From IMG/VR virus record IMGVR_UViG_3300042349_000626: DNA of 64,000 bases. One strand, written 5' to 3'. Both the position numbers and the translations under genes were made by a program. The notes beneath the pieces are model-generated. The model saw only the letters and a list, made by a program, of their open reading frames with translations, searched no databases and was not told the origin of the DNA. This DNA is from a virus (Duplodnaviria > Heunggongvirae > Uroviricota > Caudoviricetes). Below, in pieces: positions 6,442 through 40,241 of the stretch (its first letter is position 1; every line of letters starts with the position of its first letter).

Positions 6442-6450
6442 CTACCACAA

Positions 6451-6720: not shown

Positions 6721-6759
6721 CTTCGGATTACAAATCCGAAATTCAAAAACTAAATACAT

Positions 6760-6815: not shown

Positions 6816-6957
6816 TGAGCTTACTTTCTAAGAAAGACCATGAAATGGTCATCGAGGCACTAGAAACCCTAATCCAAACAAAGGAGGAATCTGACGATAA
6901 ATTTGAATACTATAATTTACTTAATTGGGTAAAATTGAAGCAAAAAGACAAATTCTG
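6814..6957 (+). CDS. small hypothetical protein (47 aa)
   Basis: ORF downstream of the repeated element. Under 60 aa, so absent from the track. Confidence 0.3.
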
Positions 6958-6965
6958 ACTTAATC

Positions 6966-7382
6966 ATGTCACTTCTTGAAATTCTATTCAATGAAAAATC
7001 TGAAATAGCTGTACAAACCAGAGTTTGTAGGTATTGTAAAAAAGAAAAACCATTAACTAAAGATTTCTATCACAGAAATCATTCTACCCAAAATGGTTTT
7101 AGATATGAATGTAAAGAATGTAGAAAACCGGGAGGTGTTAAAGACCCTTCAGCTTCTAAGAAATTGAAGAAAAAATATAATCTAAAAACACCACTCCTAG
7201 GCACTCCTTGTGCTTGTTGTGGAAAAACTGATCAACTGCTGGTTTGTGATCATATTCATGGAACTGAAACCATTCGTGGTTTTATTTGTGATAATTGTAA
7301 TGTTGGTATTGGGAGACTTGGTGATAGTATTGAAGGCGTAAAAAAGGCACTTAATTATCTTGAGGGAAATTATTTGACATAA
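6966..7382 (+). CDS. HNH homing endonuclease with N-terminal zinc ribbon, inserted in the tRNA cluster
   Basis: CRYCKKEKPL..GFRYECKEC zinc ribbon plus CDHIHG...GFICDNCN HNH motif. AT-rich. Lies between tRNA genes. Confidence 0.7.
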   Translation: MSLLEILFNEKSEIAVQTRVCRYCKKEKPLTKDFYHRNHSTQNGFRYECKECRKPGGVKDPSASKKLKKKYNLKTPLLGTPCACCGKTDQLLVCDHIHGTETIRGFICDNCNVGIGRLGDSIEGVKKALNYLEGNYLT

Positions 7383-7385
7383 CAA

Positions 7386-7457
7386 TGGAGTGTAGCTCAG
7401 TGGTAGAGCGGTCGGCTGTTAACCGATTGGTCGTAGGTTCGAATCCCACCACTCCAG
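7386..7457 (+). tRNA. tRNA-Asn (GUU)
   Basis: Acceptor TGGAGTG/CACTCCA. D-arm GCTC-AGTGGTA-GAGC. Anticodon arm GTCGG-CTGTTAA-CCGAT. T-loop TTCGAAT with one T-stem mismatch. Confidence 0.85.
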
Positions 7458-7460
7458 TTT

Positions 7461-7543
7461 GGGTAGGTGTCCGAGTGGTTTAAGGAACCTGACTGTAAAT
7501 CAGGCGGCTCTGTCCAACGTTGGTTCAAATCCAACCCTGCCCA
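7461..7543 (+). tRNA. tRNA-Tyr (GUA), class II with 14-nt variable arm
   Basis: Acceptor GGGTAGG/CCTGCCC. Anticodon arm CCTGA-CTGTAAA-TCAGG. T-arm GTTGG-TTCAAAT-CCAAC. Confidence 0.85.
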
Positions 7544-7587
7544 TTGGCGATACTGCCAAACCAGAATCCCTTCCGTGTGCTTTAAAA

Positions 7588-7613: not shown

Positions 7614-7621
7614 TATAAATA
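7614..7621 (+). promoter_or_regulatory. T4-type late promoter motif TATAAATA upstream of the giant structural gene
   Basis: Exact TATAAATA 37 nt upstream of ATG 7658, immediately after the terminator. Confidence 0.5.
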
Positions 7622-18172: not shown

Positions 18173-18173
18173 G

Positions 18174-19784
18174 ATGCCGAAAAATTACAACGCTGTAAGA
18201 ACACAAAAGGCATTACCAATTGGATCGGTAATGCCTTGGACTGGGGTATTAACTAGAATCCCCAAGGGGTGGCTATTGTGTAATGGTGCTGAAGTTAGAG
18301 CCGATGAATATCCTTTGTTAGCTAGAATTCTCAAGGATAGTTATGGTGGTACTGGTTTCGATGGTTCTTTTCCAGATTATGAGGGAACTTTTAGATTGCC
18401 TGCCGTAAATCAAAAAACTCTTGCTGATATAGGACCAGAACATTTTAATGCTAACGCTAGTATAGCACCATCATCTATTGATGATATTTCTGCTGGAAAT
18501 GTTGTCATTCAATATCTTGGAGATGAAGGAGATTTGGGTCCTCCAACAACTGTTTTTGCTACTACAGATATTAATTTTACCTACACTCCAGATCCAGACG
18601 GATTTATTGCTGCTTATACTACTTCTGGATCTGGAATTGCTACTGGCTCCACACAAGTATTTAAAAATATCTCTGCTACTGGAGGTACTGGAACAGGAGC
18701 ATTATTTACTGTAATTGTTGCTAGTGACGGAACATATTCTGTAGCTATTAAAAATAAAGGACAAGGTTATACACAAGGAAATATTTTAACCATAAGTGGA
18801 GCTAATATAGGTGGCGGAGGTAATGCTATAGTAACGGTTGATTCTATAGGTAATTCTTATTTTCAAGGAACTGTTGAAGGGCAAACATTTATTGGTGGGT
18901 TTGATGTTCGTTCTGTGTATGTAGTCCCAAGAAAATTGGGAAGAGATCACATGCCACAGCACGTACACCCAGGATCTTATGAAACGATTAATAAAAATGA
19001 TTCTGATACAGTTCCTGGTACTGGTGTGGGAGTTTGGGACAATCCCCAAATATTTTTAGCTCAAACATATGAGCAAACTAATGGAGACCCTAATGAATTT
19101 TGTTTTCCATTAAATCAAAATCCTGACGGTCCTTTAAGTAGTAATGGTGTTGCCAATTATTGGGGAGATCAAACTGGTCTTAATAGTAATGAAGCAACGG
19201 TTGGTTCTTCGAGTAGTCCTTTCCAACAAGGGTATGGAAAATACGCTCTAGCTGTTATTGGTGGAACAAAACCACCTAGAACACACATACCTATTCAAAC
19301 TAGTGCCGCTGCTCACGGTGTGGGCAAAACTTGGTTTACGTCAGCAAAAAAATTAAGAACTAGATCATCAGGTGAAACAGAAACTTCTGATTTAACTAAT
19401 ATTAGAACTACTGGTAGATTAAATGTAAATAGTTTTGTACCATTTTCTGATGAAACAGCTCCAATTAAACAACCAAATTACGATTCGGGGGGCAACGGAA
19501 GCGATCAAGCAGATAATTTTAAAAAGACGCTTTATAATACTGCCGCTGTTAGTTTTACAGTTACAGCTAAAGCTGACGCTAGTGTAAATGATGTTATTGA
19601 AACTCATGACCACGAAAGTGAATTTTTAGTTACTTATGATCCAGGTAATTTAAATATTAGAGATTTTATTTCTGTTAATTGTCAGCCAAATGTTATTCCT
19701 GATAATGTACCAGAAGCTTTACAAATCGCTTTCACATTAACTTCGCCATCATTATCCATAACAAATTTAATTAGGGCATATTAA
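18174..19784 (+). CDS. tail fibre protein with N-terminal phage tail-collar domain
   Basis: PKGWLLCNGAEVRADEYPLLARILKDSYGG..FRLP fits the tail-collar motif. Start is 2 nt after the upstream stop. Confidence 0.7.
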   Translation: MPKNYNAVRTQKALPIGSVMPWTGVLTRIPKGWLLCNGAEVRADEYPLLARILKDSYGGTGFDGSFPDYEGTFRLPAVNQKTLADIGPEHFNANASIAPSSIDDISAGNVVIQYLGDEGDLGPPTTVFATTDINFTYTPDPDGFIAAYTTSGSGIATGSTQVFKNISATGGTGTGALFTVIVASDGTYSVAIKNKGQGYTQGNILTISGANIGGGGNAIVTVDSIGNSYFQGTVEGQTFIGGFDVRSVYVVPRKLGRDHMPQHVHPGSYETINKNDSDTVPGTGVGVWDNPQIFLAQTYEQTNGDPNEFCFPLNQNPDGPLSSNGVANYWGDQTGLNSNEATVGSSSSPFQQGYGKYALAVIGGTKPPRTHIPIQTSAAAHGVGKTWFTSAKKLRTRSSGETETSDLTNIRTTGRLNVNSFVPFSDETAPIKQPNYDSGGNGSDQADNFKKTLYNTAAVSFTVTAKADASVNDVIETHDHESEFLVTYDPGNLNIRDFISVNCQPNVIPDNVPEALQIAFTLTSPSLSITNLIRAY

Positions 19785-19785
19785 C

Positions 19786-20664
19786 ATGGCAAAATATTAC
19801 ACTAGAGAAAAAGCAAAATATGGTGGTATTACAGGCATCATAATGCCCTTTATGGTTAAATTGCCTGATGTTAATATTCCCGATCAATCTACTTGGAAAA
19901 CTTTATTACCTGCTGGCTATTTGAGATGTGATGGCAGCATTCTTTCTGCTGAGGTTTATCCTGGTCTTGCTGCTATTTTAGGAACAGGACAAAATTCTAA
20001 ATTTGCTAAAAATCCAGATGTTCTTACAAGTAATCAATTTCAACTTCCGGATTTAGGATCAAAATATGTTAGATGTGCTAATTCAACTGGTCAATATCTT
20101 AATCTAACATTGGATCAAGATCCATCAATTACTAAAGTTGGAGCGGAAACAATAGTACAATCATTGGTTGGAGATTCGGTAACAATTAGATATGGGGGAA
20201 GTTTTGAAGTTATTGGTCAAGAAAATTCTTTTGGTGGAAACCCTCTATACAAAACTTCTACTGGGTTTGTTTTGAATTCTCCATTAACAGAAGAAAATTT
20301 TCAAGCTCACGGTCACGATGCCGATGTTGGGGTGTTTACGTATTTGGGTAATTGGACAGATACTTCATATGTTCAAAATAGAGGTAGTAGAGGCGGAAAT
20401 GATTCACAAACTGAAGGATCTAATAATGTTGTTCCTTTAGATGGTCCCGAAGGATCTACATTTACAATAAATCATACTCATGGTATTAATTTACCTGGAT
20501 CAACGGAATTAAAAGATAATACAACACTAAAATATCAATTTTTTAATACTGACATTGCTGCTGATGGTCTAGAAAGTGAAGTCATTATTACTACTGAAAA
20601 TGTTAAAAAATTGGACACTGCTATATCACCTTACATGTTAGTAGAATTTATTATCAAGATATAA
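19786..20664 (+). CDS. tail fibre/collar-domain protein
   Basis: PAGYLRCDGSILSAEVYPGLAAILGTG...QLPDLGSKYVR collar-like motif. Confidence 0.6.
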   Translation: MAKYYTREKAKYGGITGIIMPFMVKLPDVNIPDQSTWKTLLPAGYLRCDGSILSAEVYPGLAAILGTGQNSKFAKNPDVLTSNQFQLPDLGSKYVRCANSTGQYLNLTLDQDPSITKVGAETIVQSLVGDSVTIRYGGSFEVIGQENSFGGNPLYKTSTGFVLNSPLTEENFQAHGHDADVGVFTYLGNWTDTSYVQNRGSRGGNDSQTEGSNNVVPLDGPEGSTFTINHTHGINLPGSTELKDNTTLKYQFFNTDIAADGLESEVIITTENVKKLDTAISPYMLVEFIIKI

Positions 20665-20668
20665 AAAT

Positions 20669-22102
20669 ATGCCCAGTCAAGATTTTACTAGTTCGACATC
20701 TTGGACAGCACCCTTTGCTTGTAGAAATGTAACTGCTACAGCTATCGGTGGTGGTGGATCTGGCTATAAAGATAGAACTGATAATCAAGATGGTGGTGGC
20801 GGCGGCGGCGGTGGATTTGCTAGATCTACGAGATCAGTAGCTGGCGGAACCGTTGTATCCATAACTGTTGGATCTGGTGGTAATCAGCCAGGAAATAATA
20901 ATTCCAACAACGGCGGAACTACTATAATTAGTGGTGGACCATTAGGTGTAACTGCTACTGGGGGGAGAGGAGGCACTGACGGGCAAGGTGGAAATGGTGG
21001 TAGTGGATCTGGAGATGAAACTGGTGGTGGACAAGATGGAACAAAAGATTCCGACAATAACACTACTGGCGGCGAAGGTGGTGGAGCAGGAAGACCAGGA
21101 GGTAATTCTGGACGCTGTGGTAATTCTCTGGGGGGACAAGGAACAAATTTAGATGGGTCTCAGGCAGGATGTACTGGTGGTAAAAGGGGAGGTAATTATG
21201 GAGCTGGTGGAGCTGGTAATACTAATGGAGGTGAGGCAGGCGCTGGCGCTAATGGAGCTGCTCGATTAGTATGGGATTTTCATCCACCACAAATAAATTC
21301 ATTTACTGCTAGTACTCAAACTAATCCAGTTCCAGGAACATTAAGTAGTACTATAACACTAACTTGGAGCACTACTTATGCTAGCAGTGTAACAATTGAT
21401 CAAGGAGTTGGTGGAGTTGCTGTTAATTCTGGTGGGTTCTCAGTTAATACTGGTCTTCAATCTGTCGCTGGATCTAATTCTCCAGCACAAAGAACTTATA
21501 CAATAACAGCCACTGGTCCTGGAGGAACTGTCACCGCCACTGCTACTGCTAGTGTTTATAATGATGGTACTCCAAATGATTACTCCGTACCAAGTCAAAC
21601 AAATTTAGAACCAAGTACATTAACCAGCATTTCGATTGGAACAATTACTGGCATAGATGTTACAATTAATGCCCAAGGTGGTCCTGGTGTACAAGTATCA
21701 ACTAATAATTCTTCTTGGGCTGGATCTGTTTTTGTATCTAATAACAATCCTTTATTTGTTAGAGCTGTTTCTCCCCCATTCAATACTGATCCATCTGGGT
21801 TAACTAATTCTTCTAGTTTTTATGTTGATGTGGGTCCCATTCGAAGATTTTTTACCTTAACAACTAGAGCGCCTGATGTCAACGAGACATTTAATTACCC
21901 AAATGAAGATGATAGAGTTCCTTTTCCTGATATAGATACTATACCCGATCCAGCTGAACCTTATATTATATCTAACACATTAACTGTTGATGATATTGAA
22001 ATACCTGTAGAAATTAAAACTAATAATTCTAATGTACAAATTAGAAAAAAAACTCCTGGCTCATCTGCTTGGGGCGAATGGATCGATATAAGGAGTATTT
22101 AA
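20669..22102 (+). CDS. Gly-rich fibre-like protein, paralog 1 (shared ~260-aa C-terminal module)
   Basis: Poly-Gly tracts (GGGGGGGGF). C-terminus TRAPDVNETFNYPNEDDR..DIDTIP..TLTVDDIEIPVEIKTNNSNVQIRKK..WGEWIDIRSI. Confidence 0.6.
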   Translation: MPSQDFTSSTSWTAPFACRNVTATAIGGGGSGYKDRTDNQDGGGGGGGGFARSTRSVAGGTVVSITVGSGGNQPGNNNSNNGGTTIISGGPLGVTATGGRGGTDGQGGNGGSGSGDETGGGQDGTKDSDNNTTGGEGGGAGRPGGNSGRCGNSLGGQGTNLDGSQAGCTGGKRGGNYGAGGAGNTNGGEAGAGANGAARLVWDFHPPQINSFTASTQTNPVPGTLSSTITLTWSTTYASSVTIDQGVGGVAVNSGGFSVNTGLQSVAGSNSPAQRTYTITATGPGGTVTATATASVYNDGTPNDYSVPSQTNLEPSTLTSISIGTITGIDVTINAQGGPGVQVSTNNSSWAGSVFVSNNNPLFVRAVSPPFNTDPSGLTNSSSFYVDVGPIRRFFTLTTRAPDVNETFNYPNEDDRVPFPDIDTIPDPAEPYIISNTLTVDDIEIPVEIKTNNSNVQIRKKTPGSSAWGEWIDIRSI

Positions 22103-23407
22103 ATGCCGTTACCTCCAGCAGTATCAGTAAATTGGACTACATCTCAAGTTGGTGTTGGCGCTCCTTTTGGATGGAATATATCAAATAGTGGAAACACTAT
22201 AAGATTTGATGTACAGGATTCTGCTAATTGTGGCGGTCCTAATGGTAATGTTCAAAATGGTGTTGCTACAGCAGTATTGAGTGCTCAAGCAAGATTTAAT
22301 ATGACTGTTTCGTTAACTGGTCTGGGAGAAAGTCAAGATCCTGGATTTGAAAATATGAGTTTGAGATTCAATGGAGCCGAAATAATTAGAGCAACATCTC
22401 CAGGTGGACAACAAGGTTGTGCTGTAGGAAGACCAGTAAATCAAACAATAGTAGTTCCTGGCCCATATTTTCTAGCTAAAAATAGCACTAATTCTTTTCA
22501 ATTAAATTTTAGCACGACAGACTCTTTATTCCACGTTGGTTGTTTTTATCAATGTAATTTGACTTTTACCTTATTAGATCCTCCAGAAATTTTTGAATTT
22601 TATGCTGATCCAAATCCACAAACTAGTGGTATTTTAGGTGTACCATCAGCAAATACAGCATTTTTTTGGAATACTTTTGGGGCACAAACATTAAACATTA
22701 ATCAAGGAGTTGGCGAACTTTCTTCGATTGCTGGATCAACTGGAACAGTTAACACTGGTCTTCAATCTATCACAGGATCAGTTTCGCCAGCAACTAAAAC
22801 TTATACACTAACAGCAGCAAATAGTGCTGGCACAACGACTGCTCAAACTACAGTATCAGTATATAATGATAATACTCCAACTGGGTTCAGTATACCAAAT
22901 CAAAATAATGTAGAACCAAATAGTCCTGTAATTATACAAACATCAGCAATTGAAGGAATAGACATGATAACTGTTGCTAGTGGTGGTCCAGGTGTTCAAG
23001 TTTCTACCAACGGCGTTAATTATGCTAATACAACTACTATAAGTAACAATCAACAATTATACGTAAAAGTTTTTTCTTTACCATTTAACACAGATCCTTC
23101 TGGTTTAACTAACTCTACTCAGTATTATGTTGATGTTGGACCAACTAGATCAACTTTTACAGTGACAACAAGAGCACCAGATGTTAATGAAACCTTCAAT
23201 TACCCAAATGAAGATGATAGATTACCATCTCCAGATATTGATACAATACCTGGAACACCAGATTCATATATAACATCGGATACTTTAACGGTTGATGATA
23301 TTGAAATACCAGTTGAAGTTAAAGTTAGTAATCCAAATGTTCAAGTGAGAATAAAACCTTCTGGTTCTACTAATTGGAATAATTGGCAAGATGTAAGGAG
23401 TATATAA
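22103..23407 (+). CDS. fibre-like protein, paralog 2 (different N-terminal domain, same C-terminal module)
   Basis: C-terminal region is near-identical in pattern to paralogs 1 and 3 (...NPNVQVRIKPSGSTNWNNWQDVRSI). Confidence 0.6.
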   Translation: MPLPPAVSVNWTTSQVGVGAPFGWNISNSGNTIRFDVQDSANCGGPNGNVQNGVATAVLSAQARFNMTVSLTGLGESQDPGFENMSLRFNGAEIIRATSPGGQQGCAVGRPVNQTIVVPGPYFLAKNSTNSFQLNFSTTDSLFHVGCFYQCNLTFTLLDPPEIFEFYADPNPQTSGILGVPSANTAFFWNTFGAQTLNINQGVGELSSIAGSTGTVNTGLQSITGSVSPATKTYTLTAANSAGTTTAQTTVSVYNDNTPTGFSIPNQNNVEPNSPVIIQTSAIEGIDMITVASGGPGVQVSTNGVNYANTTTISNNQQLYVKVFSLPFNTDPSGLTNSTQYYVDVGPTRSTFTVTTRAPDVNETFNYPNEDDRLPSPDIDTIPGTPDSYITSDTLTVDDIEIPVEVKVSNPNVQVRIKPSGSTNWNNWQDVRSI

Positions 23408-24967
23408 ATGGCATCATCAACTTTTAGTGCTACCTACACATCTAGCCAAACTATATCTATTCCAGCAAATGCTACCAACATTTCTATTCAAGTTGCTGCT
23501 GCTAGGGGTGGATCTGGTGGTTATGATGCCAATACTCCTGGGGGAACTTATGGAGCTGGTAGATTCGGAACATTTAATATACAACCATCATTTGTTGCTA
23601 GAAATTTACAATTTAATATTGGTACGATTGGTGGCGATGGAACGAGTAGCCAAGGTAGTGCTCCTGGTGGCGGTGGGGGTGGTGGTGTTGCTTCTGGTGG
23701 AACAGGTGGTCGTGCTGGTCCACAGGGATCTTCTGGAGGTGGCGGTGGCGGTGGCGGAGCCACTGGTGTTTATGATAGTTATTCTGGTTCTTGGATCATT
23801 GTTGCTGGTGGCGGCGGCGGTGGCGGTGGAGCAGCATACCCAGGCGTTAATGGTTTAATAGGTGATGTTGCTCTTAATTGGGTAGGTTCTGTTTCTCCAA
23901 TCAGTAACGGTGGTGGTGGTGGTAATTGTCCTAGTGATGGATCTGGTGGTGGTGGAGGCGGAGGTGGTGCTAGCGGAGGAGGTGGAGGATATAATGGTTT
24001 TGACGTGAGTGTTGGAAACGTCAATGCTAGGGGTGGATACGGTGGTGGTAGCGGATATAACACTACATACGCTTCATTAACTTCATCAAATATTAATAAT
24101 GGTAACGGATATATTTTTATTCAATACACTTTATTAACTCCAGAAATTAATAATTTTTCGGCAAATCCAAATCCACAAACTAGTGGATCTGATGGTATTC
24201 AAAATTATGACACTACATTAAGTTGGAATACATCAGATACAACATCTGTTTCTATAAGTAATATTGGTGTGGTTGGTTCTAGTGGTTCTGCTAGTATTAC
24301 AAATTTACCTCAATCAACAGTTGGTTCGTCTTCTCCTGCCACGAGATCTTATACATTAACTGCTTGTGCTGGATCTAATTGTGTCAATCAAACTATAACC
24401 GTTGAAGTTTTTAATGATAATACACCAGATAATTATAGTATTTCTAATCAAAGTAATTTAGAACCAAATACTTTAACGACTACCAGTACAACAACTATAA
24501 CTGGAATTGATATGCAAACTATAGTATCTGCTGGACCAGGAGTTCAAGTTTCTAATAATAGCGTAAATTGGTCTGGATCTGTTTTGGTATCAAATAATAA
24601 CGTAATTTTTGCTAGAGCTTCGTCTCCTCCATTTAATACAGATCCTTCTGGTTTAACTAATTCTTCACAGTTTTACATTGATATTGGTCCAGTTAGAAGA
24701 TTTTTTACACTGACAACAAGAGCACCAGATGTCAGTGAAACGTTTAATTTTTCTAATAAAGATGATAAAGTTCCTTATCCAGATATAGACACTATAACAA
24801 CTCCTCCAGACAATCCAGCGGAACAATATATTAGTTCGAATACTTTAAGTGTCGATGATATTGAAATACCAGTTGAAATTAAAACCAATAATTCAAATAT
24901 ACAGATTAGAGTAAAACGAGCTGGAGCTAGCAGTTGGGAAAATTGGCAAGATACTAGATCAATATAA
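23408..24967 (+). CDS. Gly-rich fibre-like protein, paralog 3
   Basis: Long poly-Gly runs. C-terminus ...NSNIQIRVKRAGASSWENWQDTRSI. Confidence 0.6.
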   Translation: MASSTFSATYTSSQTISIPANATNISIQVAAARGGSGGYDANTPGGTYGAGRFGTFNIQPSFVARNLQFNIGTIGGDGTSSQGSAPGGGGGGGVASGGTGGRAGPQGSSGGGGGGGGATGVYDSYSGSWIIVAGGGGGGGGAAYPGVNGLIGDVALNWVGSVSPISNGGGGGNCPSDGSGGGGGGGGASGGGGGYNGFDVSVGNVNARGGYGGGSGYNTTYASLTSSNINNGNGYIFIQYTLLTPEINNFSANPNPQTSGSDGIQNYDTTLSWNTSDTTSVSISNIGVVGSSGSASITNLPQSTVGSSSPATRSYTLTACAGSNCVNQTITVEVFNDNTPDNYSISNQSNLEPNTLTTTSTTTITGIDMQTIVSAGPGVQVSNNSVNWSGSVLVSNNNVIFARASSPPFNTDPSGLTNSSQFYIDIGPVRRFFTLTTRAPDVSETFNFSNKDDKVPYPDIDTITTPPDNPAEQYISSNTLSVDDIEIPVEIKTNNSNIQIRVKRAGASSWENWQDTRSI

Positions 24968-24970
24968 ATA
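24963..24970 (+). promoter_or_regulatory. TATAAATA late-promoter motif
   Basis: Exact motif 20 nt upstream of ATG 24990. Confidence 0.4.
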
Positions 24971-24989
24971 CAAAAAATAAGGTGATGAT

Positions 24990-25166
24990 ATGAAAAAGAC
25001 ATTTGTAGATGCCCCCAACATGTCTCCGAAAGAAGAGTACTATCGCTCACAAATTATTTCTGTAAATAACATTAAAGAAAACGAAAAATTAGAAATTAAA
25101 GCATCGGAACCAATTCAAGTTAGAATTAATGGGGGACCATGGCAAGATATAAGACCACTACAGTGA
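24990..25166 (+). CDS. 58-aa protein carrying only the C-terminal motif of the paralog family (..IQVRINGGPWQDIRPLQ)
   Basis: Hand-translated ORF (under 60 aa). Its terminal motif matches the ends of the three paralogs. Confidence 0.4.
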   Translation: MKKTFVDAPNMSPKEEYYRSQIISVNNIKENEKLEIKASEPIQVRINGGPWQDIRPLQ

Positions 25167-25167: not shown

Positions 25168-25175
25168 TATAAATA
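25168..25175 (+). promoter_or_regulatory. TATAAATA late-promoter motif upstream of the 1822-aa fibre gene
   Basis: Exact motif 29 nt upstream of ATG 25204. Confidence 0.45.
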
Positions 25176-25203: not shown

Positions 25204-28200
25204 ATGCCATTTAGTAGTACGCCAGTATATGTTGGGCTTGGAGATCAAGTAGAAGTTAGATACCCAACACCATCAACTTGGAATACAAAAGTATCAGTTA
25301 ACGTTCAAATTGGAACTGGTTCTGATCCTGATGGCATTATTTTTGGTACGAGAATACCAGATTCGAGACCAGATAGTTTTAGCTTTAACGATCAACAAGC
25401 ATTTATTAACACAAGTACCACAACAGTACTTACAACAATTGAAAGATCTACTACATATTATTCAAATGAAATTTTAGTTAATGGAATTGAAATTGAAATT
25501 CCTGCTGTAGTAACGGTTACTACTAGTGGTCCGAAAGGAACTACGACAGGAGCAAATGCCGCTGCTGCTTTTAGAATAGATCGTGGTGGTTCTATAGGTC
25601 CTTGGATTACGTCAGGAACTGTACGTCAAGGCGATAAGATCAGATTACGATTAACCACCGAAAATTGGTATACTACAACAACTAATGTAACCCTCAGACT
25701 TTCAGATGAAACGTGGGGAACAAATGTAGGGCAACCTAGTGCTGTAGTAAGTGATACTTGGTCTGTTACTACACGAGCACAAGATCAACTTGTAAATTCT
25801 TGGCAGTTTACTGATTTTGTTGATGTTATTGCTACAGAATTTGGTACATACAAAACACAAAATATACCCATCACTGGCATTGATTCTGATGCTGTTTTAA
25901 GAGCTACATCTACTGGTAATGTACAGATTTCTAAAGATAATTCAACTTGGTCTCAATCTGTAACTGGTCTTGTTTTAAACAATACATTATATACACGAAT
26001 TGCTATTGGATCTACGTATACAACTAAAACATCTGGATCCGTAACTATTTTTTCAAATGATGCTGATACTTTAACTGGCGGTTACGAAAATAACGATGCT
26101 GGAACTTATGGGTCTGGAACTTTTCAAGTAATACAAGCAATTGGAACTGTAACAGATAACTGGTATGTTTGGACAGAAGTAGATAGATATCCAAATACTG
26201 TTTCTTTATCTCCTATTTTTACTCCATCCGATGATGGAACAATTGATAATGTTGTAGTTAGTTCTACAAATACTTTTAATGCTGCTGAACCAGACAGAAC
26301 TTATTTTACCAATTTCAATATTTCTGGATTGGGTACAGAATATCCAAGCAATACATATGCTGAAGCAGCAACCCCAATTAATCCTTCGTATCTTTCTAGT
26401 TCACTACCGTTAAATACTACTCCAACTTCAAATCAAACTGTACAAGTTCTTTGTTCTGTAACTAGTGGTGATGCTCAAATTAGAAAGAATAATACAGGAA
26501 CTTGGGTACAACAATTATATGTTCAAAATGGCGATCAAGTAAATTTAAGATTAACTGCTTCTCCCAATTTCAATACTACAAAAACTAGTTCAATTAGAAT
26601 ATCTGGTCCTCCATCAGCTGGTCCTAATGGGAACCCCACGGCAGGTCCAACAACACCTACATTTGCTGATAAAGTAGATACAATTACTTTAAAAACACGA
26701 CTTTCTAGAAGCACTCCATATCCATTCAGAGCTAGAGATAATTATACCGCTTTGCCTGGACAAACATATATTGTAACCATACCAATTGCTGGTCTTGATG
26801 TAGCTACCACAGCACAAGCAGTAGATGCCGAATCAACTGTAGGAGCAAATGTACAAGTAAGTGTAGATAACGTAACATTTGCTAAAACTGTTACTGTTCC
26901 TGCTACTGCTGAAGTAGTATATGTAAGAGCAACTGCTTCAAATACTCAAGGTAATGTTGTTAGTGCTGCTTATAGAATTGGAAGCACTACTGATGTTTGG
27001 AAAATACAAACACAAATAGAAGACAATATTTATGCTAGTTACAGTGGTGGTGTTGGTGCTAGTGGGTCTTTTGTTGAATATAATCTCCCAGCTTATGTAC
27101 AGCAATTATCTTTTGTAATGTATGGTGGTGGTGGCGGAAATGGTGGTGATGATGCCCCAAATAGTTTTGGTGGAAGGGGTGGTTTTAGTACAATATTAAA
27201 GGGTGTAATTAATTTACCTCAAGAAGTGTTGAATGATGACAATTTAAGAAATCTAAAAATATATACAGGAAATTCTGGTAGATTTGGTGTAAATTTCTTG
27301 AGTGGTGCTCAAGGTGGAGCTGGTGGTTGGGGTTATGCTATTGGTGGTGATGGTGGTAATGCTGGTCCTAGCGATAAATCAGGTGGAGGAGGCGGAGGCG
27401 GTGGTGCTTCCGCTATTACATTAGGGGATGGAACTTTACTTGTTATGGCTGGAGGTGGTGGCGGCGGTGCTGGTGCTGGTAATGACACTACGCTTCAACA
27501 AACAAATCAAAATGGCAACTATACAGGAATAACTACATTAAGAACATCTTTAAATGGATTGAATTTTAATGGTTCTGATGGTCAATCTAATCTCACCGAT
27601 GGTGGTGGTGGAGGCGGTGGTGGTGGTGGCTTTGGAGCTGGTGGAATAATTCCGCCAAACAAAGTTGATGAAAGTGGTGTTGTAATCCAAACAACTGATT
27701 TAGATGCTATTGGTGGCACAACTGGAGATCTTTATTATAATTCAAATTACGCCACAATAACAGAAACAACTGGTTTAAATTTGGGTGCTGGACCACAAGA
27801 GTTTGGCTATGTAATGTTAACTTATTCTCCGCAGGACATTACACCAGAACCATTTTTCTTCCCTGAAGTAGATAATGCTTCTCCTGCTACTCAATACACT
27901 TCAGAAAAAGTTCAAATTTTTGGAATCACTGGTGGAGTTATATCTACATTGATTGGTAATAATGCCCAAGTTAGAACTTGTAATCCAAATGATCCAAATA
28001 CCTGTGGAGCATGGGGACAATCAGCAATTATTTTCAATGAAGGATATGTTCAAGTCAGATTTACAACTGGCAATGATTATTTTACGACTTACAGAGCAAA
28101 CGTTACGATTGGTAATGTAACTTCATTCTTTAATGTAAATACTGGCGAACCCCCAGATAATAATCCAGCGCCATTTACAATACCAAATAAAATAGATCAA

Positions 28201-30672
28201 GCAGTTAATACTTTAATTGAAAGTGATATTGTGTATGTGTCTGGGATTAACATACCAGTAAATATAACTGCTAGCAATGGAGCACAAATTTCTATTTGTA
28301 CTCCATCTGGGACATGTGATACCTACCAAAATTCTCCTAGACAAATATCGAACGGTCAGGGCTTTAAGGTTAGATTGTTATCATCACCAGATAATTTAAC
28401 ATCTGTTTTTACTGACGTAGCTATAGGAACTGGTCCATCAGTTGAGTGGGAAGTTAGAACAATTAAAAGTTTTGATACTTCGCCAATCGGTTTTATTTTC
28501 ACTGATTTATCTAATGTTCCGCTCAATACTCTCGTAAATAGTAACACCAGAACAATACAGGGTATTGATACATCTATTGTTGCTACTGTGACTGGTGGAG
28601 CTTCTGTAATATTAAATGCCAATACAGCAAATCCAATACTTCCTGTCGGAAATACAACCACATTCACTGTAAGCAATCTTGATAGTATTCAATTACGATA
28701 TACGACTAGCGGTATAAATGGAGATCCAAAACAATTTATTGTAACTGTTGGAACTTATAGCACTACATGGACAGTCACAAACGAAGGGCAGTTAGGAACA
28801 ACACCAACACCATTTTTATTCACGCCAGTACTTGCTACTGGTCCTGGTACATTTACTGATTCTGAAATTATCACAATTAGTGGTCTGGGTCAAACAGTAA
28901 GTATATTTTCTACTGGTGGTGGATTAATTAGTATCAATGGTGGTAGTTTTCAATTGTTGACTGCCTCTAATCCAGGAACTGTTAGTAATGGTAATACAAT
29001 TAGAGTTAGATTAAAATCAAGTGAAATAGAAGCATTTTCTCTTTCTACCAATATATACGTTGGTTCATTTAATACCCCATTCTCGGTAATTACCCCTGGA
29101 CCAGAGCCAGAACCTGTATTTGGGCAGTATTACAGCAGTCCTTTTGTAATTAAGGTATTAGGTTCCGATCAAATTAAATTTAATACTAAATTTGATGGCA
29201 TGGCAATTGGATCAATTATGCCTGTATTTAAAGATAATACCCAAGTAGATGAATGGGGAATTTCTGAGGATAAATTGAATGGTAAAGCCAACTCTAGATT
29301 TCCTGGGTGGATTTATTGTGATGGTAGATTTGTTTCACCACAAGATTATCCACTTCTTTATCAAGTAATTGGAAATACTTTCGGGGCAAATCTTGCTGGG
29401 GAATTTAGAGTTCCTGACATGAGAAATAGAAAACTTCTCGGAACAGGAAACGTAGATAACCAATCACCATCTTCGCCAATTGTCACACCAGAATATGGTC
29501 CAGCAAAACAAAGTGGAAATGGTTCTGCTTTTATTCCAGGATCTTTTGGTGGAATGTGGTACATTGACACTATTGCCGATCCTGGTATAGATGAATTGGA
29601 ACAAGTAGAAACCCCAGCAACTGGACAACCAGCTCAAGATAGTCAATTTTTTGCTGTTGCTCAAATTATCACAACTGGTTATTCTGAAGTATCAGATACA
29701 ATCGAATTTGCTGTTAGTGGACAAGTATCTGGTCAGGTTTCTTTAAAAGAAACTAAACTTTTTGATGTTCCATTCCACCAGCATAATCTTATTACTGGAC
29801 AAGCTGATTTAGGTAGTGTTAAAGGAAGAGTTGGGTGGGGAAGTCCTGGTGGTGCCCCTAGTGGAGTTGATATAGGACAAAAAGGCGGAAATTCAGCATC
29901 TCCTCCTCTAGAAGGAACGGCAACTATTAATCTGTGGGGATATCATACTGGGAATCAATATCAATTGCTGAGCGATCCTTCAAATAGTGATGAAAGCGCC
30001 AACACTCTTAGAACAACTAATTCAATTGCTACATATGGTACTGTTTGGGGTAAAAAAATCGGAGAATATGGTTTATGTCTCCCTCCAGGAAAACAAGGAA
30101 ACTTCTTAAATCCTAATACAGATCCTGGACCAACTCAGGATGAATATCAATGTATTGAGTTTTTACAAATATTTGATACGTCTTGTGGTAGCCCTACTAC
30201 TGCCGAAATTCATAATTCAATTACTATTAGACAGCCAAACTCAGCAATATTTGGTGAAATTTATAATTACGTAGATAATAATGCTTTGCCAGCAGACACA
30301 GTTTCTGGCAATAATTTAAGATGGATTGGAGCTGTAACTATTCCTAGAAGATTTATTAGCGTTTCTAAGTTTTCTCCTTCAACAAAACTTTCCCATTCCC
30401 ATTATCTTTCGTTGTCTGCTATAACTAATACTAATACCGTATTTTCTTATGGTAATAGTATTGGGGGCGGAACATCGTTTGGTGGGGCACCTACCAATTC
30501 TTCAGTTTCTGTCGTATTTACTGCTGCTCAAGTTGGACTTGAAGTTTTCCCAGGAACATTTACTTTAGGTTTAGGAAAACAGTTGATACCGTCGCCAGCA
30601 TTCTCTCCAAATGATTTGGTGCCACTTGTTACACCTTATACTAAAGTTAGATGGGTAATCAAAGCATATTAA
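25204..30672 (+). CDS. long tail fibre protein (1822 aa) with Gly-rich blocks and a C-proximal tail-collar domain
   Basis: FPGWIYCDGRFVSPQDYPLLYQVIGNTFGANLAGEFRVPDMRNRKLLG collar motif. Gly blocks resemble those of paralogs 1 and 3. Confidence 0.75.
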   Translation: MPFSSTPVYVGLGDQVEVRYPTPSTWNTKVSVNVQIGTGSDPDGIIFGTRIPDSRPDSFSFNDQQAFINTSTTTVLTTIERSTTYYSNEILVNGIEIEIPAVVTVTTSGPKGTTTGANAAAAFRIDRGGSIGPWITSGTVRQGDKIRLRLTTENWYTTTTNVTLRLSDETWGTNVGQPSAVVSDTWSVTTRAQDQLVNSWQFTDFVDVIATEFGTYKTQNIPITGIDSDAVLRATSTGNVQISKDNSTWSQSVTGLVLNNTLYTRIAIGSTYTTKTSGSVTIFSNDADTLTGGYENNDAGTYGSGTFQVIQAIGTVTDNWYVWTEVDRYPNTVSLSPIFTPSDDGTIDNVVVSSTNTFNAAEPDRTYFTNFNISGLGTEYPSNTYAEAATPINPSYLSSSLPLNTTPTSNQTVQVLCSVTSGDAQIRKNNTGTWVQQLYVQNGDQVNLRLTASPNFNTTKTSSIRISGPPSAGPNGNPTAGPTTPTFADKVDTITLKTRLSRSTPYPFRARDNYTALPGQTYIVTIPIAGLDVATTAQAVDAESTVGANVQVSVDNVTFAKTVTVPATAEVVYVRATASNTQGNVVSAAYRIGSTTDVWKIQTQIEDNIYASYSGGVGASGSFVEYNLPAYVQQLSFVMYGGGGGNGGDDAPNSFGGRGGFSTILKGVINLPQEVLNDDNLRNLKIYTGNSGRFGVNFLSGAQGGAGGWGYAIGGDGGNAGPSDKSGGGGGGGGASAITLGDGTLLVMAGGGGGGAGAGNDTTLQQTNQNGNYTGITTLRTSLNGLNFNGSDGQSNLTDGGGGGGGGGGFGAGGIIPPNKVDESGVVIQTTDLDAIGGTTGDLYYNSNYATITETTGLNLGAGPQEFGYVMLTYSPQDITPEPFFFPEVDNASPATQYTSEKVQIFGITGGVISTLIGNNAQVRTCNPNDPNTCGAWGQSAIIFNEGYVQVRFTTGNDYFTTYRANVTIGNVTSFFNVNTGEPPDNNPAPFTIPNKIDQAVNTLIESDIVYVSGINIPVNITASNGAQISICTPSGTCDTYQNSPRQISNGQGFKVRLLSSPDNLTSVFTDVAIGTGPSVEWEVRTIKSFDTSPIGFIFTDLSNVPLNTLVNSNTRTIQGIDTSIVATVTGGASVILNANTANPILPVGNTTTFTVSNLDSIQLRYTTSGINGDPKQFIVTVGTYSTTWTVTNEGQLGTTPTPFLFTPVLATGPGTFTDSEIITISGLGQTVSIFSTGGGLISINGGSFQLLTASNPGTVSNGNTIRVRLKSSEIEAFSLSTNIYVGSFNTPFSVITPGPEPEPVFGQYYSSPFVIKVLGSDQIKFNTKFDGMAIGSIMPVFKDNTQVDEWGISEDKLNGKANSRFPGWIYCDGRFVSPQDYPLLYQVIGNTFGANLAGEFRVPDMRNRKLLGTGNVDNQSPSSPIVTPEYGPAKQSGNGSAFIPGSFGGMWYIDTIADPGIDELEQVETPATGQPAQDSQFFAVAQIITTGYSEVSDTIEFAVSGQVSGQVSLKETKLFDVPFHQHNLITGQADLGSVKGRVGWGSPGGAPSGVDIGQKGGNSASPPLEGTATINLWGYHTGNQYQLLSDPSNSDESANTLRTTNSIATYGTVWGKKIGEYGLCLPPGKQGNFLNPNTDPGPTQDEYQCIEFLQIFDTSCGSPTTAEIHNSITIRQPNSAIFGEIYNYVDNNALPADTVSGNNLRWIGAVTIPRRFISVSKFSPSTKLSHSHYLSLSAITNTNTVFSYGNSIGGGTSFGGAPTNSSVSVVFTAAQVGLEVFPGTFTLGLGKQLIPSPAFSPNDLVPLVTPYTKVRWVIKAY

Positions 30673-30697: not shown

Positions 30698-31639
30698 ATG
30701 GGAAAATTAAATTTTAATCCTGACGATTTTGTATTTGAAAAGTTGCCTTCTCCTGATGAGAAAAAAACAATTCTTGAGTATGATGCAAAAAACAGATTAA
30801 TTCTTCTAAGAACTAAAGACGAAACTGGTAATTATGTTTACAACAGTGTAGTAATTAGTTCGGCAATCAATGAAAATATTTTAAAAAATATTCCTGATGA
30901 GTGGTCAAATGACAACGATAGAATTATTTTGTTCGCCATCTACGAAAATGGTGATTATATAATTGAAAAGGAAAAATTGAAATATGATTTTTCTACAAAA
31001 AATACTAGATGGATTCAATATACATCTGACTTCTTAACTATAGAACAAGCAAAAGAATTATATAATATTCTGAATGCTGCTATCACTATCGACACGGAAG
31101 TAAAAAATTATAATGCTACTAAAGAGTATTTGGAATTATCTAAAACTGCTTATTATCTTTCCGAATTCAATAAAAAAAATGATCATTTTATTGAGGAATT
31201 GTTGAGAGGAACTGATCATAAGGTTCTCCCAGATGCTCCAGAACTTTTTGAAAATGAAAAGGAAATGTGGATTACGTGGAGAAATAAACTTCGTGATTTG
31301 GATAAAATCCGTGATGATTTTGAAACTGATTTAGATTATATAATTTGGATTGAGGAAATGAAATGGCCCATAAGACCAGATCAATACTATTCAAAGTATT
31401 CTAATTTAGAAGAGGAATATTTAAGTACTCCAGATCAATTTGTAAATAATCCACAATTTTTGAATCTTAAATCATCTTCCGATTCAACAATGGAAGTTAC
31501 AAAATTTGCTGAAATGATTAGAACGTATGAAGTATCTGGGTTTGAAATTAACCCAACAACATCAAAACTTGTGGCCAAATATAATTTAATTAAAGATATC
31601 GAAGAGTTTAAAACTATTAAAATGAAGGAGATGGAATGA
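30698..31639 (+). CDS. hypothetical protein
   Basis: 313-aa ORF, acidic and K/E-rich. Confidence 0.5.
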   Translation: MGKLNFNPDDFVFEKLPSPDEKKTILEYDAKNRLILLRTKDETGNYVYNSVVISSAINENILKNIPDEWSNDNDRIILFAIYENGDYIIEKEKLKYDFSTKNTRWIQYTSDFLTIEQAKELYNILNAAITIDTEVKNYNATKEYLELSKTAYYLSEFNKKNDHFIEELLRGTDHKVLPDAPELFENEKEMWITWRNKLRDLDKIRDDFETDLDYIIWIEEMKWPIRPDQYYSKYSNLEEEYLSTPDQFVNNPQFLNLKSSSDSTMEVTKFAEMIRTYEVSGFEINPTTSKLVAKYNLIKDIEEFKTIKMKEME

Positions 31640-40221: not shown

Positions 40222-40241
40222 AATTGAAATTAATCAAGACC

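Follow-up and report, generated by a model that had tools for sequence, protein, structure and literature searches.

Counterparts of the proteins analysed here are known from phage S-PM2, in which two homologues have been detected in virions: p225 (T4-GC 739) and a 1704-nt cluster assigned to p223 by its length (PMC3037559 Table S8). In chemostat coevolution of S-PM2d, high-frequency mutations arose in the cassette genes as well as in the fibre gene (PMC9910659 supplement), and the S-PM2 late promoter has been reported as NATAAATA (PMC2984593). Gly-rich domains form the receptor-binding tips of Pam3 gp24 and S16 gp38 (PMC9608196), and phage T4 Hoc has variable Ig domains and a constant C-terminal binding domain (PMC10385173).

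Organization of the locus

The window, a 64,000-nt stretch of DNA, contains the tail-fibre region of a T4-like cyanomyovirus, a marine cyanophage. Its relevant features are as follows.

7614..7621, + strand: late-promoter-like motif TATAAATA, upstream of the 3504-aa gene
20669..22102, + strand: gene A, ORF of 477 aa; the C-module HMM covers residues 210-477
22103..23407, + strand: gene B, ORF of 434 aa
23408..24967, + strand: gene C, ORF of 519 aa; matches phrog_29022 and phrog_2155 "virion structural protein" (E 3e-45 and 4e-44)
24963..24970, + strand: late-promoter-like motif TATAAATA, overlapping the gene C stop codon
24979..24985, + strand: AAGGTGA, visible in the sequence itself as a Shine-Dalgarno-like site 4 nt before the mini-gene ATG
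24990..25166, + strand: mini-gene, 58 aa; a stand-alone copy of the first half of the repeat domain described below (repeat HMM ~3-58)
25168..25175, + strand: late-promoter-like motif TATAAATA, between the mini-gene and the 1822-aa gene
25204..30672, + strand: ORF of the 1822-aa fibre protein, whose counterparts in S-PM2 and S-CAM1 carry the annotation gp12-like short tail fibre
30698..31639, + strand: 313-aa protein, putative tail-fibre assembly chaperone (phrog_4697 "tail assembly chaperone", E 2e-40)

Genes A, B, C and the mini-gene lie exactly where an earlier note on this DNA had placed them, the first three in tandem and back to back, with stop and start adjacent at 22102/22103 and 23407/23408. 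From 7658 to 24967 the genes abut with spacers of 0-4 nt, and the motif at 7614 is probably the start of a transcription unit that comprises the 3504-aa gene, two collar genes and then A, B and C. The window has just three copies of TATAAATA, each on the + strand and 20-37 nt before a start codon; the raw count (3 vs 4.5 expected by chance) shows no enrichment and is not enough by itself, and it is the placement that is informative. The mini-gene does have its own copy, as had been proposed, at 24963 and 20 nt upstream of the ATG. L002 and L004, which are the nearest relatives, keep this copy; other clades lack it, and there the mini-gene follows an ORF of ~82 aa (overlapping it in L001). As for the motif at 25168, in several other loci too a copy overlaps or follows the mini-gene stop codon. 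The gene of the 313-aa protein keeps its place downstream of the fibre gene across the loci and in S-PM2 and S-CAM1.

The shared C-terminal module

The three cassette proteins divide into the following parts.

Gene A, residues 1-209 (nt 20669-21295, + strand): Gly-rich head, PF21722
Gene A, residues ~210-301 (+ strand): Ig-like domain
Gene A, residues 302-403 (nt 21572-21877, + strand): full repeat domain, repeat HMM positions 1-99
Gene A, residues 404-477 (nt 21878-22099, + strand): C-terminal half-domain; repeat HMM positions 16-50 match residues 431-464
Gene B, residues 1-157 (nt 22103-22573, + strand): Cys-containing non-Gly head
Gene B, residues 158-258 (+ strand): Ig-like domain
Gene B, residues 259-360 (nt 22877-23182, + strand): full repeat domain, repeat HMM positions 1-99, E 2e-11
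Gene B, residues 361-434 (nt 23183-23404, + strand): C-terminal half-domain; repeat HMM 13-54 match residues 385-427, E 2e-5
Gene C, residues 1-247 (nt 23408-24148, + strand): Gly-rich head, homologous to the internal Gly-rich domain of the fibre
Gene C, residues 248-339 (+ strand): Ig-like domain
Gene C, residues 340-441 (nt 24425-24730, + strand): full repeat domain
Gene C, residues 442-519 (nt 24731-24964, + strand): C-terminal half-domain; repeat HMM 12-52 match residues 469-511

BLASTP with composition correction aligns A with B over 277 aa (55.6% identity, E 6e-96), A with C over 307 aa (55.4%, E 1e-97) and B with C over 288 aa (52.1%, E 8e-91), so that the C-terminal similarity is genuine homology and not low-complexity composition. 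The sharing noticed earlier is therefore real; its description as a near-identical C-terminal third is not accurate, since the module is ~275-280 aa long, makes up more than half of each protein and is 52-56% identical overall. Identity climbs toward the C-terminus, from 39-48% in the Ig-like domain through 56-69% in the repeat domain to 61-74% in the last 74 aa. The paralogous genes share 63-65% of their nucleotides, with exact runs of at most 24 nt, and thus are old duplicates without recent gene conversion.

Exchangeable heads

The heads of A and C are two different Gly-rich domains, and that of B is a novel Cys-containing beta domain. Residues 8-202 of A match Pfam PF21722 Gly_rich_2 (E 3.5e-10). 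The profile of the C-type head matches the Gly-rich domain inside the 1822-aa protein (residues 627-874, E 7e-24), and the C head gives weak PDB matches to the ALK Gly-rich region (E 0.02-0.05). Between the A head and C-type heads there is distant kinship only (hhalign probability 87.5%, ~75 columns), and profile comparison found no match of the A head to the 1822-aa protein; the proposed relation of both poly-Gly heads to the fibre thus holds for C and, for A, shrinks to this remote kinship. The B head, which had been called lectin-like, has no match in Pfam or PDB and no recognisable binding fold there, and is not demonstrably a lectin.

At least 187 relatives were found in metagenomes, with at least 13 mutually unrelated clusters of N-terminal domains, among them Gly-rich and SUEL-lectin heads (PF02140, above the Pfam threshold), on one common module that is always C-terminal. 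Beyond the head types of the window, the relatives have SUEL lectin and at least 10 further domains. The protein ends exactly at the module end in 101 of 120 family members, and a second half of the repeat follows in none of the 120; some relatives continue for ~45 aa beyond the half-domain, with a stretch that does not correspond to the second half. Syntenic loci hold between 1 and 4 copies. L004 is the closest distinct relative (its fibre is 82.6% and its B orthologue 76.7% identical), and its third gene carries an unrelated head on a module that is 62% identical; comparison among related phages thereby bears out the view in the earlier note that the family is modular and diversifies by shuffling domains on a constant module. 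In S-PM2 and S-CAM1 the cassette proteins have otherwise diverged, and the first half of the repeat still ends all three in each phage.

A receptor-binding or decoration character, also suggested earlier, is plausible: the SUEL lectin of relatives, the Gly-rich domains and the top structural neighbour, a PA14-domain cyanophage protein, all point to heads that may act as glycan or receptor binders.

A repeat divided between genes

The 1822-aa fibre contains eight copies of a beta-sandwich repeat of ~100 aa, and its parts are listed here.

Fibre N-terminal ~54 residues (25204..25365, + strand): proposed acceptor ("socket"), second half of the repeat (repeat HMM ~51-100)
Fibre residues 71-195, 204-330, 505-608, 881-987, 988-1092, 1094-1199 and 1201-1302 (+ strand): seven full repeats
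Fibre residues 404-467 (+ strand): partial repeat copy
Fibre residues 627-874 (+ strand): internal Gly-rich domain
Fibre residues 1367-1409 (+ strand): tail-collar domain

A repeat HMM of 102 positions, for which 84 full-length internal repeats of fibre proteins were the sole input, was compared with the orphan ends. The cassette tails match HMM positions 12-54 (E 2e-5 to 9e-5; hhalign 94.6%, columns 2-58), and in the mini-protein HMM 10-52 match residues 9-52 (E 3e-6; hhalign probability 89%). At the fibre N-terminus positions 51-89 match residues 3-41 (E 3.5e-9; hhalign probability 96%, E 2e-9, columns 51-90), and it alone among all window ORFs matches the second half only. By these profile matches the terminal motif of the cassette proteins is the first half of a repeat and not a free-standing tail, and the start of the 1822-aa gene is the missing second half, a division that the earlier note missed and that gives its idea of an anchoring module a concrete, testable mechanism.

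The second half opens the fibre in 12 distinct loci, where the N-termini begin at the identical point in 12 of 12, and the downstream fibre still opens with it in S-CAM1 (E 8e-11) and S-PM2 (E 5e-8). The S-PM2-type acceptor is found in 49 phage records and S-PM2-type donors in 49, with identical breakdowns of organism, host and identity; a record has a single acceptor and mostly three donors; donors and acceptor thus appear to co-occur in the 49 records. The junction varies between two clades: in the first, the fibre start "MPFSSTPVYV" goes with mini-gene and cassette ends "W.D(I/V)R..", and in the second "MA(K/R)(V/I)LVG" goes with the mini-gene end "W..IDPSDL" and cassette ends "W.(K/T/N)PN..". 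This covariation is essentially one event, and shared ancestry could therefore explain it.

The mini-gene

The mini-gene is a real coding gene. It is present in 14 syntenic loci with conserved length and position, each time directly upstream of the fibre gene, is under purifying selection (dN/dS 0.03-0.12) and is called in NCBI, JGI and ENA records. Some JGI records name its product "GrcA", obviously a transferred name. BLASTP against the cassette tails detects B alone (34% over 50 aa, E 9e-5); profile comparison aligns the mini family over its whole length with the final ~64 columns of the C-module family (probability 95%, E 3.4e-8). Homology, position and selection together uphold the earlier suggestion that it is a free copy of the tail.

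That the locus is an artefact or non-functional, with merely compositional similarity, a mini ORF arisen by chance or as the pseudogene remnant of a duplicated tail, and decaying paralogues, is extremely improbable, and is already refuted by the conservation data. The mini ORF is indeed short and hand-found, bears the transferred name, and lies near a motif that is unenriched across the window; yet the composition-corrected E values of A, B and C range from 1e-91 to 1e-97, dozens of contigs carry the cassette and mini ORFs intact, the homologues in S-PM2 belong to the virion, and selection and position are constrained as above. Stand-alone mini clusters number ~11 among 1.84 billion representatives.

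Proposed joining of heads to the fibre

A, B and C would be virion proteins of the tail-fibre or baseplate module, each with an exchangeable head, an Ig-like spacer, one complete repeat and the first half of another. The orphan C-terminal half of a cassette protein may pair in trans with the orphan N-terminal half of the fibre into one complete beta-sandwich; the head would therefore become an N-terminal extension of the fibre, and alternative heads A, B and C could therefore be mounted on one scaffold. Evolution would swap heads and leave the joint untouched, and the 58-aa mini-protein would be a bare plug, either capping headless fibre N-termini or, as a placeholder or chaperone, keeping them folded until displaced by a head. 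Such a plug and socket would be a way of mounting alternative host-recognition heads on one fibre. We regard this docking as an evenly balanced proposition. In its favour are the homology of the halves, their conserved cut and joint conservation, the co-occurrence in the 49 records, the single acceptor, the junction covariation, the rise in conservation toward the C-terminus, heads that look like receptor binders and, from S-PM2, the homologues in virions and the coevolution mutations, which fit a role in adsorption. Against it count the stoichiometry of four donors here to one acceptor type, the ~45-aa extension of some relatives and the B head with no recognisable binding fold.

An AF2 model of the B monomer places two beta-sandwiches at residues 162-356 (pLDDT 86-97), whose fold matches tandem Ig domains; the head is of low confidence and the tail, residues 361-434, mostly coil (pLDDT 67-88). 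A fusion of the mini-protein to fibre residues 1-64 was folded (AF2) with an alignment whose rows never span the junction. Strands flank the junction (pLDDT 74-87) in the order of an intact repeat; overall the model is moderate only (mean pLDDT 61, pTM 0.56), with low confidence in residues 84-122, the last strands of the putative domain, and weak PDB matches (E >= 0.05).

The lack of confidence in the fusion model, and the moderate pLDDT of the tail even in the B monomer, would also fit a constant anchor for some other partner (baseplate, the two collar-domain proteins, the 3504-aa protein or the capsid), the half-repeats being an evolutionary remnant that does not pair in trans and the mini-protein competing for or regulating the same virion site. 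The probable co-transcription of the cassette with the giant and collar genes, and not with the fibre gene, agrees with such an anchor. We nevertheless consider it unlikely: a lone half beta-sandwich is not expected to be stable, the two orphan halves break off at the same loop and have been conserved together from the window phage to S-PM2 and S-CAM1, their co-occurrence appears in 49 records, and the mini-gene always directly precedes the acceptor.

A variant of the docking reading, differing solely in the fate of the mini-protein, would make it mainly a transient assembly chaperone for the fibre N-terminal half-domain, later displaced by cassette tails and missing from mature virions, much as PapD and FimC complement pilins, with a displacement resembling donor-strand exchange. 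With a late promoter of its own and a strong Shine-Dalgarno sequence, the mini-gene in the clade of the window could yield its protein in excess; the gene lies immediately 5' of the fibre gene in 14/14 loci and is missing from S-PM2 and S-CAM1, as expected of an accessory factor. Against this, in other clades the gene lacks such a promoter, and downstream of the fibre gene there is already another gene for a putative fibre chaperone. The data fit a permanent cap as well as a transient placeholder, and the chaperone variant seems to us unlikely.

Relation to known phage proteins

A variable N-terminus on a constant C-terminus is also the architecture of T4 Hoc, and to this extent favours an anchor for another partner; no link of the cassette proteins to Hoc is found by sequence or Pfam. 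For docking of the halves on the fibre, T4 gp12 is a less favourable comparison: its N-terminus is baseplate-proximal, and if that of the 1822-aa fibre is so as well, the heads would lie near the baseplate and not at the distal tip, which counts against docking. The receptor-binding tips of Pam3 gp24 and S16 gp38 are built of Gly-rich domains of the same kind as some heads of the cassette family.

Gene order and genomic setting

The cassette lies in a T4-like cyanomyovirus segment of ~37% GC, and many metagenome contigs, as well as an NCBI contig of 192,177 bp, encode proteins identical to those of the window. The coordinates that the earlier note had assigned to the three tandem cassette genes, here called A, B and C, are exact. 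The genes of the locus stand in the following order.

gp5-like hub genes (phrog_1922, phrog_4540)
5147-7544, eight tRNA genes
7658-18172, gene for a 3504-aa protein
two tail-collar protein genes (PF07484)
20669-22102, + strand, cassette gene A (477 aa)
22103-23407, + strand, cassette gene B (434 aa)
23408-24967, + strand, cassette gene C (519 aa)
24990-25166, mini-gene (58 aa)
25204-30672, fibre gene (1822-aa collar-domain protein)
putative fibre chaperone gene (phrog_4697)

Megablast against 50,697 phage records yielded no DNA-level relatives of the locus, and only protein-level searches were informative; by these the nearest isolates are the Synechococcus phages Sf-FR1 (host WH8102), which has a mini-gene, and S-CAM1. 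The position of the cassette between two collar-domain genes and a long fibre gene is kept in 20 viral loci, Sf-FR1, S-CAM1 and S-PM2, and among the 20 viral contigs and Sf-FR1 the number of cassette genes varies from 1 to 4 with gene order unchanged. Pfam places the PF07484 tail-collar domain in the two upstream proteins and the 1822-aa protein, and finds no match to it in A, B, C or the mini-protein.

The eight tRNAs just upstream of the 3504-aa gene are Ile-tat, Met, Leu-taa, Thr, Leu-caa, Leu-tag, Asn and Tyr; the S-PM2 giant gene is likewise adjoined by a tRNA cluster, and its 3779-aa product, the counterpart of the 3504-aa protein, was mutated in a chemostat study. The 3504-aa protein carries several copies of the motif C(x)RDIGY(F/I)VDAV…GGN (e.g. 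KCQRDIGYFVDAV, KCKRDIGYIVDAV, TCERDIGYFVDAV), a pattern that suggests an internal repeat. Two distinct RNA ligase genes are found less than 3 kb apart (40224-41411 and 43072-44115), one T4 Rnl1-like (PF09511) and the other of the PF09414 type with an OB-fold domain (PF21189). It is in this stretch alone that the window has ~83% DNA identity to an isolate (S-CREM1). The terminal 62001-64000 segment has a GC content of 0.567 vs ~0.37 elsewhere in the window, an ORF within it (62010-62825) matches PF17338 'Gene product 88' (E 5e-42), and these last 2 kb may be horizontally acquired DNA.

The shared C-terminal module

The common C-terminal third of A, B and C that had been noticed by eye reflects true homology: composition-corrected BLASTP aligns 277-307 aa of each pair at 52-56% identity (E 1e-91 to 1e-97), so that the similarity is not mere low-complexity composition. 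Identity climbs toward the C-terminus, from 39-48% through 56-69% to 61-74%, while DNA identity is 63-65% without long identical tracts; the three genes are therefore long-established paralogues kept under constraint rather than recent copies. An HMM of the ~275-aa module (an Ig-like domain, a full repeat and a half-domain) covers A 210-477, B 165-434 and C 248-519 with E ~1e-116 to 1e-118, and its profile has no significant match among PDB sequences. The AF2 model of B has two confident beta-sandwiches (residues 162-253 and 267-356, pLDDT 86-97); the ~75 residues after them are largely coil. Foldseek with this model against PDB returns only generic tandem Ig-like matches such as titin and contactins, and the top neighbours in BFVD are cyanophage virion structural proteins, including a PA14-domain protein and S-PM2 Q5GQB5.

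A repeat domain divided between genes

The second sandwich of B is homologous to a ~100-aa repeat that occurs in the fibre as seven full copies and one partial copy. A repeat HMM of 102 positions was built from 84 full-length internal repeats only, leaving out fibre N-termini, cassette proteins and mini-proteins, and was then matched to the proteins of the locus.

Matches to the repeat HMM
A, full copy: residues 302-403, HMM 1-99, E ~1e-10
B, full copy: residues 259-360, HMM 1-99, E ~1e-10
C, full copy: residues 340-441, HMM 1-99, E ~1e-10
A, tail: residues 431-464, HMM 16-50, E 9e-5
B, tail: residues 385-427, HMM 13-54, E 2e-5
C, tail: residues 469-511, HMM 12-52, E 2e-5
Mini-protein: residues 9-52, HMM 10-52, E 3e-6
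Fibre N-terminus: residues 3-41, HMM 51-89, E 3.5e-9

Alignment by hhalign to the repeat gave probabilities of 94.6% for the tails (columns 2-58), 89% for the mini-protein and 96% for the fibre N-terminus (columns 51-90). By these positions the first half of the domain (the donor, or plug) closes each cassette protein and the mini-protein, and the second half (the acceptor, or socket) opens the fibre. The fragments are near-complementary on the repeat model, the mini-protein and tails covering HMM ~3-58 and the fibre N-terminus 51-100, with overlap only in the loop at ~49-58; the cut lies in this loop, after a conserved Trp. All 12 distinct fibre N-termini start at the identical point, and the repeat HMM gives no second-half-only match in any other window ORF. 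The sole other candidate, a 63-aa ORF at 54483-54674, has a weak second-half-like match (HMM 55-93, E 0.17) that is probably due to chance.

The same division is found in S-CAM1 (Anaposvirus) and S-PM2 (Nodensvirus), each of which has three 'virion structural proteins' with diverged bodies that all end in the first half, followed by a 'gp12 short tail fiber' that starts with the second half (E 8e-11 in S-CAM1, 5e-8 in S-PM2). Donor and acceptor gene types stand at 3:1 in these two phages and at 4:1 in the window. By tblastn the S-PM2 acceptor is found in 49 phage records, at one place each, and an S-PM2 donor in 49 phage records at 147 places, mostly three per genome; the identity, organism and host breakdowns of the two record sets are identical, and donors and acceptor appear to co-occur. 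Residues flanking the cut also differ in a coordinated manner between two clades in fibre, mini-protein and cassette tails, which is suggestive but effectively counts as a single event.

The mini-gene

The 58-aa mini-gene is genuine: it has homologues of 58-71 aa that immediately precede the fibre gene in 14 loci, and dN/dS is 0.03-0.12 in unsaturated pairs. Its own late-promoter motif, noticed previously, is indeed present in the window clade (TATAAATA at 24963-24970) together with an AAGGTGA Shine-Dalgarno sequence, and the claim that it ends in the same terminal motif as the cassette proteins is borne out by end-to-end profile alignment with the last ~64 columns of the cassette tails (probability 95%, E 3.4e-8). 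The C-terminus of phrog_2155 matches both the B tail (E 4e-8) and the mini-protein (E 4e-4). A mini profile search of 1.84 billion representatives recovered about 11 clusters of stand-alone minis, alongside long proteins with many repeats; the signal of cassette tails was too weak for them to be recovered, and the C-terminal position of the half-domain was therefore judged from the best 120 of 187 relatives of the module, described below.

Fusion of the mini-gene to the fibre by read-through or frameshifting was considered and rejected, since the frames differ and an in-frame TAA directly precedes the fibre ATG; the promoter motif between the genes and the maintenance of the split in 14 loci also speak against it. 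The name 'autonomous glycyl radical cofactor GrcA', which the mini-protein bears in several JGI records, has almost certainly been transferred to it in error, since Pfam detects no glycyl-radical domain and gives only sub-threshold RNA_pol_Rbc25 (E 0.005) and Phage_fiber_C (E 0.08) matches. In a clade recognized by the sequence MA(K/R)xLVG, an ORF of ~82 aa lies between cassette and mini-gene (12943-13191 in the Sf-FR1 locus L001, where it overlaps the mini-gene start, with equivalents in the syntenic loci L009, L010, L011, L017 and L018); the window clade lacks this ORF and instead has a TATAAATA ahead of the mini-gene.

Variable heads on a constant module

A C-module profile search of 5.8 billion proteins found 187 relatives. 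The N-terminal parts (heads) of the best 120 of these fall into at least 13 clusters without BLAST links between them, 101 of the 120 terminate exactly at the last module position, and none of the 120 continues into the second half of the repeat. The domain shuffling on a constant module that the earlier note proposed is accordingly seen in the unrelated head clusters, in the variation from one to four cassette genes per locus and in a replaced head: in the syntenic locus L004, where the fibre is 82.6% and the B orthologue 76.7% identical to those of the window, the third gene has an unrelated head on a module that is 62% identical. By sequence comparison of the two loci, this is head replacement in place.

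Two of the window's heads had been described as poly-Gly blocks related to those of the fibre. This holds for C, the head of which belongs to a 50-member Gly-rich cluster whose profile matches a fibre-internal Gly-rich domain (E 7e-24). The A head is at most remotely related to the fibre block and contains a Gly_rich_2 domain (PF21722, residues 8-202, 40.7 bits vs a cut-off of 24.3) that Pfam does not match in B or C. The C cluster is distinct from that of A and related to it at the profile level; composition-corrected BLASTP gives no match among the Gly-rich A head, the C head and the fibre, and the C-fibre relationship is visible by profiles only. The fibre domain in question, residues 627-874 (window 27082-27825), is homologous to the C head, and the scaffold therefore has a built-in head-type domain between repeat blocks. 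Gly-rich domains form the distal receptor-binding tips of Pam3 gp24 and S16 gp38 and resemble ALK (PMC9608196). The A and C heads share this likeness (PF21722/PF12810-type), A through its PF21722 match and C through ALK matches in PDB that are below significance, while the A head has no match among solved structures; the Gly-rich domain is C-terminal in gp24 and gp38 and N-terminal in A and C.

The lectin-like character suggested for the B head finds no backing in Pfam or in a profile search of PDB, neither of which gave a match. Because a homologue search with the head alone gave only 2 proteins, its model is shallow and of low confidence. A stand-alone 181-aa protein (P0161, on a 202-kb JGI contig) is 48% identical to the B head and is without the C-module, and a B-type head therefore also exists as a separate gene elsewhere. 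The SUEL/galactose-binding lectin domain PF02140 is not matched by Pfam in A, B or C; it is found in two relatives, P0041 (39.3 bits) and P0049 (35.6 bits; cut-off 31.4).

Two variations on the cassette gene occur among the relatives. In Sf-FR1, gene 23 (L001 9358-10272) encodes a Gly-rich head without the C-module and gene 24 (L001 10265-11266), overlapping it by 8 nt, a C-module without a head; the pair resembles a single cassette gene broken in two by a frameshift, for which programmed frameshifting, a pseudogene or a sequencing error could be the explanation. A conserved ~45-aa extension (…F.PL..R(S/T)G…TR..G.L.AKNI..) follows the half-domain in one class of cassette proteins; it is not present in the window and occurs in the following genes.

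L001 7968-9356
L006 9284-10978
L008 3754-5064
L010 2634-4025
L011 9626-11017

The possibility that this extension is a built-in second half of the repeat was rejected for lack of any match between the two.

A proposed plug-and-socket joint

The most economical reading is a joint in which the C-terminal half-domain of A, B, C or the mini-protein would complete the N-terminal half-domain of the fibre. Such a joint would explain the peak of conservation at the extreme C-terminus, the free exchange of heads, the mini-gene next to the socket, and the co-occurrence of donor and acceptor. Any protein ending in the first half, i.e. A, B, C or the bare 58-aa plug, could complete the fibre N-terminus; the completed joint would lengthen the repeat chain and place a variable head at its end, one virion could display mixed heads, and new specificities could be gained by grafting any binding domain onto the plug. 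The mini-protein itself may be either a lasting cap or a temporary placeholder on the fibre. That interchangeable recognition heads are mounted on a common fibre in this way, via a beta-sandwich domain split between two genes, is put forward tentatively, at slightly less than an even chance.

Pairing of the halves was modelled as a single chain of the mini-protein fused to fibre residues 1-64, with MSA rows unpaired and none across the junction, and with a depth limited by a homologue search (mini plus fibre 1-60 profile) that gave 12 proteins. The AF2 model has a mean pLDDT of 61 and a pTM of 0.56, with residues 20-80 at 74-87 and an unconfident last third. Strands are predicted at 33-38, 42-46 and 52-54 before the junction and at 66-69 and 73-79 after it, in the order of the intact repeat, and the model is consistent with, though no proof of, pairing of the halves. 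Foldseek with the fused model gives weak beta-sandwich, cupin and CBM matches (E >= 0.05) over ~84 columns.

Marine Synechococcus and Prochlorococcus myoviruses are among Earth's most abundant viruses, and to our knowledge their host recognition is largely unknown. T4 long-tail-fibre homologues are not recognised in them (PMC2984593), and our search found no fibre structure for this group. The locus supplies defined candidates for host recognition, among them heads of lectin and Gly-rich type, a rule by which more can be traced in metagenomes (any protein ending in the half-domain), and a concrete, testable attachment mechanism. If real, the split-domain joint would explain how specificities are swapped and multiplied without disturbing virion assembly, and would offer a tag of ~60 aa with which foreign binding domains could be loaded on such a fibre.

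Virion presence and coevolution in S-PM2

Evidence for the presence of the window's cassette proteins in virions comes only from homologues, those of S-PM2. T4-GC 739 of S-PM2 (1749 nt, p225) was detected in virions by MS, as was a 1704/1851-nt cluster (Sullivan et al. 2010 Table S8, PMC3037559); the label of the latter row is garbled, but in length it agrees with p223 and the orthologue of p223 in Syn1. Other phages have their 'virion structural protein' annotation by transfer from this S-PM2 MS result. In a 500-day chemostat coevolution of S-PM2d, there arose an in-frame insertion in cassette gene 1 (LN828717 170185), a frameshift deletion in cassette gene 2 (172568) and a SNP pair in the fibre gene (177699 and 177707), the 177699 SNP (mutation #63) being fixed in all three chemostats by day 39 (PMC9910659). 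The mutations were assigned to genes by coordinates because gene labels disagree between two supplement files. Genes homologous to those of the window are thus among those changing under host resistance.

Comparison with known systems

Genes of this kind are already known, as anonymous 'virion structural proteins', from S-PM2-like phages, and so is the theme of a conserved anchor with a variable binder in phage receptor-binding proteins. In the literature searched, the reversed polarity (variable part N-terminal, constant part C-terminal), the breadth of head shuffling and the splitting of a repeat domain between cassette or mini-protein and fibre are not described, and no functional or architectural account of the S-PM2-type genes beyond 'structural protein' was found. 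A close likeness in gene order is seen with S-PM2 p223/p224/p225 and p226 (T4-GC 737-740), with synteny of giant protein, gp12-like protein, collar protein, tandem paralogues, fibre and chaperone; equivalents in S-CAM1, Syn1, S-RIM44 and ACG-2014 are annotated 'virion structural protein' and 'gp12 short tail fiber'. The S-PM2-type paralogues end in the same first-half domain and their fibre opens with the second half. However, their homology to the window C-module is recognisable only in the terminal half-domain and parts of the Ig-like region, and S-PM2 and S-CAM1 lack a mini-gene and have a fibre of ~1040-1085 aa rather than 1822 aa.

T4 Hoc is described as a string of variable Ig-like domains that a conserved C-terminal binding domain displays on the virion (PMC10385173). 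Its monomeric beads-on-a-string Ig folds resemble the AF2 model of B. However, Hoc binds the capsid and belongs to the head-module genes, whereas the cassette lies in the tail-fibre module and shares the repeat and half-domain with the fibre gene. Neither Pfam nor sequence comparison links the cassette proteins to Hoc.

In phages CBA120 and G7C and in Klebsiella depolymerase phages, alternative receptor-binding proteins or tailspikes share conserved N-terminal adaptor or anchor domains. The likeness lies in a common attachment module, a differing binding part and horizontal exchange of modules, without any sequence relationship. The cassette differs in that its conserved part is C-terminal and its variable part N-terminal, and in that the conserved part is an incomplete domain matching an incomplete scaffold domain rather than a self-contained adaptor.

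In chaperone-usher pili one subunit has an incomplete Ig-like fold, and another polypeptide supplies the segment that completes it (donor-strand complementation and exchange); a single strand is donated, and the gap can first be occupied by a small dedicated protein that later gives way to the final partner. The term 'strand complementation' turned up in no phage tail-fibre paper in a literature search. The phage joint would resemble the pilus in completing an incomplete fold in trans and in allowing a small gap-filler, and would differ in that about half a sandwich (4-5 strands) would be donated, and in a phage virion, not a secreted pilus. There is a substantial chance, though one falling a little short of even, that the locus holds a new attachment mechanism; phage receptor-binding proteins would then have a 'plug-and-socket' that is genetically encoded and donor-strand-like.
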